Shown here: piece by piece, positions 1 to 237 of the stretch | Layout of the letters: the number at the start of each line of letters is the position of its first letter | Numbering within the stretch: position 1 is the first letter of the stretch | Source: Escherichia coli | Lineage (GTDB): Bacteria; Pseudomonadota; Gammaproteobacteria; Enterobacterales; Enterobacteriaceae | Direction: 5' to 3' (one strand) | DNA length: 237 nucleotides | Assembly: GCF_003334315.1 (NCBI RefSeq) | Contig: NZ_QOWR01000141.1 | Notes under the pieces: generated by a model | The model's input: the letters and a program-made list of their open reading frames with translations, nothing else | Databases searched by the model: none | Told to the model about the DNA's origin: nothing | Position numbers and translations under genes: made by a program

Positions 1-19
1 TGATAGAAACAGAAGCCAC
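1..19 (-). CDS. insA: IS1 InsA (transposition regulator and N-terminal part of the InsAB' frameshift transposase); first 6 codons only, CDS continues beyond the window
   Basis: GTG start at 19-17 on the minus strand, followed by GCT TCT GTT TCT ATC, i.e. (M)ASVSI, matching the InsA N-terminus MASVSISC. The start is 56 nt from the IS1 terminus, consistent with the known insA position in IS1. Only 19 nt lie in the window. Confidence 0.72.
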
Positions 20-26
20 TGGAGCA

Positions 27-45
27 CCTCAAAAACACCATCATA
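27..45 (-). promoter_or_regulatory. insA translation-initiation region: Shine-Dalgarno GAGG (30-27) and a candidate -10-like hexamer TATGAT (45-40) of the IRL-associated insA promoter
   Basis: GAGG lies 7 nt upstream of the GTG start, which is good spacing. TATGAT sits about 20 nt upstream of the start region. The insA promoter is known to overlap the IRL, but exact -35/-10 assignment here is my reading and not verified; no convincing -35 is seen at 17-bp spacing. Confidence 0.4.
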
Positions 46-51
46 CACTAA

Positions 52-74
52 ATCAGTAAGTTGGCATCATCACC
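52..74 (-). repeat. IS1 terminal inverted repeat (IRL, about 23 bp); InsA-binding end of the element
   Basis: The minus strand reads GGTGATGATGCCAACTTACTGAT, against the canonical IS1 IRL GGTGATGCTGCCAACTTACTGAT (22 of 23 matching). IS1 ends are established binding sites for InsA and carry an IHF site; I cannot place those precisely from sequence alone. Confidence 0.85.
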
Positions 75-237
75 GAATCTATATACTGAACCGGATTCAG
101 CGGATACTGATAAAAATTCCATCCCCCCTTCAGCCCAATCGGATCCTGAGTGATATACCTCCCCTGCAGCGGGTCATAATAGCGGTGGCGGTTGTAATAC
201 AGGCCGGACTCCTCATCATACTGCTGCCCCGGCAGGC
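53..237 (-). CDS. Rhs-family (YD-repeat) core protein, 3' end of the conserved core domain; ORF interrupted by IS1 at 74/75 and terminated inside it (probable truncated gene or pseudogene lacking its C-terminal toxin domain). 5' end lies beyond the window.
   Basis: Minus-strand frame starting at 235 translates without stops to [53 protein letters not shown], then S-VMMPTY and TGA at 55-53. The first 53 residues match the strongly conserved Rhs core C-terminal region ([10 protein letters not shown]...[11 protein letters not shown]...YQYPLNP) as I recall it from enterobacterial Rhs proteins. The other two minus-strand frames contain early stops. Codons 55-60 and the stop are IS1 sequence. Confidence 0.85.

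Follow-up and report, generated by a model that had tools for sequence, protein, structure and literature searches.

An IS1 end in the 3′ end of an Escherichia coli rhs core: probable simple insertion into an orphan fragment, read at one junction in a short draft contig

Introduction

Orphan rhs-CT/rhsI modules are found downstream of main rhs genes (Poole et al., 2011, PMC3150448; Koskiniemi et al., 2014, PMC3967940). Core and tip of the Rhs proteins meet at a boundary motif defined as PxxxxDPxGL (PMC3150448), and orphan tips can fuse to the main rhs gene via core homology and become expressed (PMC3967940). Loss of a target duplication from an insertion sequence, by adjacent deletion or by recombination between two IS copies, has also been documented (PMC11708052).

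Here we describe a stretch of E. coli DNA, referred to as the window, in which an IS1 end adjoins the 3′ end of an rhs core. The window is 237 bp long and constitutes the entire contig QOWR01000141.1 of draft assembly GCA_003334315.1; the other IS1 end lies outside it. We compare it with the IS-free allele of the locus, with the predicted partner junction in complete genomes and with other IS1 insertions around rhs.

Results

Features of the window

The following features were assigned.

1-74, minus strand: IRL end of IS1, the first 74 nt of the element (GGTGATGaTGCCAACTTACTGATTTAG...), present here as the reverse complement
52-74, within the IS1 IRL: 23-bp terminal inverted repeat, one substitution at position 8 relative to GGTGATGCTGCCAACTTACTGAT
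53-55, minus strand: TGA stop inside the IRL, which ends the truncated rhs frame (by translation)
67, T on the plus strand: minority IRL variant, A instead of C at IS1 position 8
75-237, minus strand: rhs core, 3′ end; all 163 nt agree with the orphan rhs fragment that follows rhsC-ybfB
75-83: candidate copy of the target-site duplication, gaatctata (tatagattc in rhs sense), abutting the IRL
75-94, minus strand: PVQYID-S codons, the first part of the core/tip boundary motif PVQYIDSMGL (PxxxxDPxGL with Ser for the second Pro)
123-128, minus strand: C6 run (G6 in rhs sense), in frame here and of varying length elsewhere
131-145, minus strand: DPIGL codons, a motif conserved in Rhs cores and located upstream of the actual boundary motif

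Positions 52-74 carry the IS1 terminal inverted repeat. The IRL reads GGTGATGaTGCCAACTTACTGATTTAGTG... and departs from the common form at window 67, which is position 8 of IS1; in an alignment of window 1-74 with the IS1 of strain ECONIH5 this was the single mismatch. All 74 nt are shared with the annotated IS1 of strain RCAD0514 (L014 7860-7933; 74/74), and the exact 74-mer occurs in 364 of 9,314 IS1-bearing E. coli records. At position 8 the variant IRL (GGTGATGA...) has the base that the IRR has there (GGTAATGA...), and the two ends are thus more symmetrical.

The 9-mer gaatctata directly follows window 1-74, which confirms the original prediction that these nucleotides abut the IS1 end. 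It had also been described as an AT-rich patch in a GC-rich gene; the first half of this description stands (7/9 A+T, against 47% A+T across window 75-237), but the gene portion of the window is only 52.8% G+C. On the minus strand, window 75-235 encodes 53 residues followed by the first two bases of a Ser codon, so that IS1 sits after the second base of this codon, within PVQYIDSMGL, a form of the PxxxxDPxGL boundary motif with Ser for Pro. The rhs frame reads through the junction into IS1 and terminates after SVMMPTY, seven codons beyond. The 60-aa partial read-through product is NCBI RCQ20512.1, and the SVMMPTY tail was absent from its matches in a protein search of cluster representatives only.

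The G run lies about 70 nt before the tip, which corresponds to about 70 nt upstream of position 2501 in L005-L013; it is G6 in the window, G5 in seven other loci (L005-7, L009, L011-13) and G7 in L008. The G5 and G7 forms each frameshift rhs just before the tip, a variation that could be real slippage or long-read homopolymer error. Because of these frameshifts, the 155-aa tip is predicted as a separate ORF on 594 contigs; the contexts that we sampled were mostly G-run frameshifts rather than IS junctions.

The IS-free allele and the interrupted gene

Comparison with an IS-free allele, as the original prediction had proposed, was carried out with strain 120899 (L015). Its gene order is full-length rhsC (4.2 kb), ybfB, a 1,521-nt truncated rhs fragment and ybfC. 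The fragment is annotated as 'missing N-terminus', its frame begins NLGIDIPY without a start, and it lies downstream of a full rhs/rhsI pair, which is the arrangement of an orphan module; we take it to be ybfO-like, as in K-12. The only exact match of window 75-237 in L015 is at 3065-3227, inside this annotated N-terminally truncated RHS pseudogene, and the 9-mer is present at the site as a single copy (L015 3065-3073). The orphan and the main rhsC are near-identical core-ward of window coordinate 101, with only 42 of 110 positions identical tip-ward.

The interrupted gene is therefore most likely the N-terminally truncated orphan downstream of rhsC-ybfB and not a full-length rhs, in which case the tip and ybfC were orphaned before IS1 arrived. 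A simple insertion had been expected to leave behind an orphaned toxin-immunity pair; the pair is already an orphan in the IS-free allele, and IS1 is not the cause. We also considered that IS1 broke a full-length, expressed rhs, formed by recombination of the main rhsC core onto the tip, and so disarmed an active toxin. Strain ECONIH5 has just such a fusion of the main core to the orphan tip, lacking ybfB and the rhsC tip and interrupted by an IS1 8 bp from the window site, and the 163 nt of core in the window are as compatible with a fusion as with an orphan. Against this, eight complete records with the same IS1 (see below) retain an intact rhsC-ybfB upstream, the K-12-like orphan arrangement, and we consider disruption of a full-length gene unlikely.

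The 155-aa tip had no match in Pfam, NCBIfam or the PDB, and YbfC none in NCBIfam or the PDB; the precomputed Pfam fields were empty for both, and a literature search found no paper on the function of ybfO or ybfC. From gene order and the boundary motif, the tip is a putative toxin and ybfC a putative immunity gene. YbfC (L001 4271-4840) begins MKRVLFFLLMIFVSFGVIADC, which resembles a signal peptide with a lipobox-like Cys, and the tip has three Cys residues; these sequence features hint at a periplasmic site of action.

A short contig between two repeats

The junction of the window was absent from 5,426 complete E. coli genomes, in which the best full-coverage matches were IS1 and rhs pieces at other spacings. 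The sole contiguous whole-window match among complete genomes was in ECONIH5, and it is a different insertion, 8 bp away. PLSDB plasmids gave no contiguous full-identity match to the whole window, and the exact junction pattern CATCACCGAATCTATATACTGAACCGG had zero matches in GTDB representative genomes, JGI metagenome contigs and IMG/VR. We also guessed 10 junction-specific ORFs of the partner contig (TTG-start MESLPIDSMGL... on seven tip alleles, two initial-L copies and one post-IS1-stop form). Exact look-ups of these returned no match, which is uninformative because PGAP marks this piece as a pseudogene.

At 237 bp, the contig probably owes its shortness to repeats on both sides, IS1 on one and the shared rhs core on the other, with only the junction between them being unique. 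The final position that tells orphan core and main rhsC core apart, as determined in the IS-free genome, is equivalent to window 160; since 160 + 77 = 237, the rhs-side end would fit an assembly-graph break at k = 77. The IS1 side comprises 74 nt, not 77, a shortfall that points to a further IS1 in the source, sharing the IRL variant and with a flank starting gaa. If the source does have further copies of this variant, the variant would be a better marker of a lineage than of any single event.

The predicted far junction in eight complete records

A simple insertion would be expected to leave a far junction composed of the IS1 IRR, tatagattc and aatgggactggca..., with the tip and ybfC beyond. 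We assembled a synthetic query of 259 nt from the tip (...cccatt), GAATCTATA and the IS1 IRR, and searched it against complete E. coli genomes. It was contiguous over all 259 nt, at 99.2% identity, in eight complete records, which represent seven strains (RCAD0514, AHM9C68I, AHM9C61I, JX21CE33 (twice), 2017.13.01CC, 30EVA2 and 23CRST042). The only other full-length match was in ECONIH5, offset by 8 bp.

In the eight records the junction reads ...cccatt GAATCTATA/GGTAATGACTCC, where the slash marks the edge of IS1, and the 9-mer directly abuts the IRR. RCAD0514 reads ...cccattgaatctata/ggtaatgac..(768-bp IS1)..gttggcaTcatcacc/agagcaatt or, in another excerpt of the same region, ...gccagtcccattgaatctata/ggtaatgactcc... 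(768-bp IS1) ...gttggcaTcatcacc/agagcaattaactt... Beyond the IRR the rhs frame picks up again as (I)DS-MGL-ASKYGH... and continues through the 155-aa tip to ybfC, which it overlaps by 4 nt. The element has a length of 768 bp, is annotated as IS1 transposase with programmed frameshift, and has both the orientation and the minority IRL variant of the window. The original prediction of the same 9-mer at the other IS1 end, followed by xGL, a tip and a small ORF, was thus borne out to the base in these records, with the qualification that the two junctions come from different genomes.

At the IRL, the eight records differ from the window: the element abuts agagcaatt, 17 bp past the ybfB stop, and not gaatctata, and there is consequently no duplication at this IS1. 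Both of its junctions were present in 8/8 records, 849 bp apart and with a 100% identical IRL flank; rhsC-ybfB is intact upstream. Relative to the IS-free allele, exactly L015 3074-4129 is gone, a stretch of 1,056 bp that comprises the entire orphan core. IS1 is kept, the edge of the deletion lies exactly at the IS end and target duplication is zero, as in an adjacent deletion; ATTGAATCTATA and AGAGCAATTAAC form the flanks, and 8/8 records share this structure. The prediction had named an IS1-mediated deletion as the alternative to simple insertion. Such a deletion, of the 1,056-bp orphan core on the IRL side, is true of these complete records, as a statement about them and not about the source of the window. 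Either transposase or homologous recombination with a second IS1 may have removed the core.

A single insertion followed by deletion

We interpret the window as the IRL junction left when IS1 transposed, by simple insertion, into the orphan rhs fragment after rhsC-ybfB, with a deletion occurring later in the lineage of the eight records, and give this reading a probability of roughly 0.78. Its basis is the IRL junction of the window, the single-copy target in IS-free genomes and the complementary IRR junction in the eight records, the two junctions never having been found in one genome. The 9-bp target-site duplication is very probably real but unremarkable, with the far side of the source read across from the sequences of other genomes. 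We infer that both junctions descend from one event and that the source genome keeps the IRR junction.

The proposed history is as follows. IS1 would have cut its target with a 9-bp stagger at tatagattc, spanning the Y-I-D-S codons of PVQYIDSMGL, and inserted with its transposase genes in the rhs direction. The resulting order would be orphan core ...tatagattc, IRL-IS1-IRR, tatagattc a-ATG-GGA-CTG..., tip (155 aa) and ybfC, in which the tip and the putative immunity gene ybfC would stay intact and 777 bp would now lie between the tip and the core homology. The tip is thus likely to have been cut off from the core homology needed for fusion to the main gene, with ybfC intact. In the derived lineage, an IS1-associated deletion of 1,056 bp, from the IRL to 17 bp past the ybfB stop, would then have erased the IRL-side copy of the duplication, either as an adjacent deletion or by recombination with a second IS1 beside ybfB.

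Assembly error would offer a trivial explanation, an IS1 end wrongly joined to the end of an rhs core. The contig is very short, has repeats on both flanks and comes from one assembly record (2 samples), yet a chimera would not be expected to overlap by exactly 9 bp with an IRR junction sequenced independently in eight finished genomes; we regard this as a very remote prospect.

The single-insertion reading would also fail if the window and the eight records stemmed from two independent hot-spot events, or if IS1 had first inserted beside ybfB and an IRR-side deletion had then reached the 9-mer; under either history, the match across genomes would not demonstrate a duplication. The locus has been struck repeatedly, at no fewer than five distinct IS1 sites; 145 genomes have an IS1 end near such a core end, and strain CFSAN064036 has an IS1 at a distance of only 4 nt from the breakpoint at the IRL in the eight records. 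Two independent events would, however, have to coincide in a base-exact 9-bp register, in orientation and in a minority IRL variant, and the other insertions lie at different positions, which argues against a single dominant hot spot. As to a first insertion beside ybfB, in the established model of replicative intramolecular transposition the deleted DNA leaves as an excised circle. The IRL/gaatctata junction would then sit on a non-replicating circle, and the window would need a second base-exact insertion. We judge both histories highly improbable.

A further possibility concerns the source genome itself. It may have the IRL junction of the window while the far side of its IS1 was rearranged by IS1 recombination or by an IRR-side deletion or inversion, such that the tip and ybfC are no longer adjacent and the duplication is lost. 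IS1-rich genomes often recombine between copies, and the far side of the source could differ from that of the eight records. The far side of the source is unassembled, several IS1 copies with this IRL seem to be present in that genome, the same IS1 lineage underwent a deletion on its other side in the eight records, and in another genome (L004) an IS1 remnant is fused to the same rhs core end beside unrelated genes. Yet the IRR junction with the 9-mer is kept in 8/8 complete records that have this IS1, and the other IS1 insertions at the locus are simple in 4/4 cases. A rearranged far side is accordingly not what we expect, although it deserves some weight among the less probable outcomes.

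Other IS1 insertions around rhs

A perfect 9-bp duplication flanks each of four further, independent IS1 copies at the locus (GTCCCATTG, CATCCCTGG, CCTGTTCAC and CAATTAACT), so that 9 bp is the local rule for IS1. All four are at different positions. Together with the window, the rhsC locus has at least five independent IS1 events: the window, ECONIH5 (in an activated fusion of main core and orphan tip), 2014EL-1343-2 (within the tip), L008 (some 1 kb beyond the tip) and CFSAN064036.

At 4271-9813 of ECONIH5 (L001, NZ_CP026202.1), an orphan-type tip directly continues the main rhsC core, and neither ybfB nor the rhsC tip is present. It is a natural fusion of main and orphan genes, like one selected experimentally in Salmonella, and is broken by IS1 with duplication GTCCCATTG, 8 bp from the window site. 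We rejected ECONIH5 as the same event as the window because its element is offset by 8 bp, has the canonical IRL and is flanked by its own duplication.

The independent IS1 of CFSAN064036 (L016, NZ_CP028166.1), 3317-4084, has a divergent IRL (...GCATCGCC) and the duplication CAATTAACT. Its site, in the spacer between ybfB and the orphan, is just 4 nt away from where the deletion in the eight records ends. A second IS1 near a CFSAN064036-type site could have produced their deletion by recombination.

In L004 (GCA_020494055.1, CP084683.1), a 55-nt IS1 IRR remnant at 2365-2420 is fused to the rhs core at ATCACTCAGGATCCGATTGGG, with a porin gene and a proB-like gene as neighbours. This fusion represents a rearrangement associated with IS1, with its end point within the same core end.

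More widely, 145 of 5,426 genomes have an IS1 IRL end within about 0.6 kb of such an rhs core end on the same strand, at many spacings and under genes annotated rhsA, rhsB and rhsC; IS1 insertion in rhs tip/immunity regions is therefore common. We doubt that IS1 at or near the core/tip boundary is a recurrent, selected lock or disarming of toxin tips with the immunity gene kept. Were it so, parting the tip from the core homology would block the activation of orphan toxins by recombination, and later deletion of the orphan core would make the block permanent. Most simply, the clustering of IS1 around rhs tips reflects its preference for AT-rich DNA.

Discussion

The insertion described here is itself ordinary and its biology already known. 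We regard the locus as only mildly notable, for a pre-deletion intermediate that would be represented by a 237-bp contig and for the repeated IS1 insertions around rhs tips. The analysis nevertheless illustrates that a candidate duplication in a repeat-bounded draft contig can be tested via its predicted partner junction in finished genomes. On the single-insertion reading, the window would supply the missing intermediate for the 1,056-bp IS1-associated deletion of the eight finished records, and the source strain most probably retains the uncharacterised tip and ybfC, with the tip severed from the core homology through which it could be activated (PMC3967940).

Among the closest described systems are simple insertions of the IS1 family in E. 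coli and Shigella. The window locus has in common with these a typical terminal inverted repeat and an AT-rich target; the element is 768 bp long in related genomes, four other insertions at the same locus have 9-bp direct repeats, and both kinds of junction (IRL in the window, IRR in the eight records) have the 9-mer in common. It differs from typical IS1 in the minority A, not C, at IRL position 8, and from a typical IS1 insertion in that its duplication is reconstructed from two genomes and not read in one. As in the IS-associated deletions described previously (PMC11708052), the eight records keep an intact IS1, one original flank and one new flank; in contrast to these, the presumed pre-deletion intermediate is here known solely from a 237-bp draft contig.

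The interrupted gene compares well with known orphan rhs-CT/rhsI modules (PMC3150448; PMC3967940). Here, too, a truncated core that has neither N-terminus nor start is followed by a boundary motif, a variable C-terminal tip and a small ORF (ybfC), and in another strain, ECONIH5, the same tip is fused to the main rhsC core. Two features set this locus apart from the known modules: its motif, PVQYIDSMGL, has Ser for the usual Pro, and IS1 parts the core homology from the tip.
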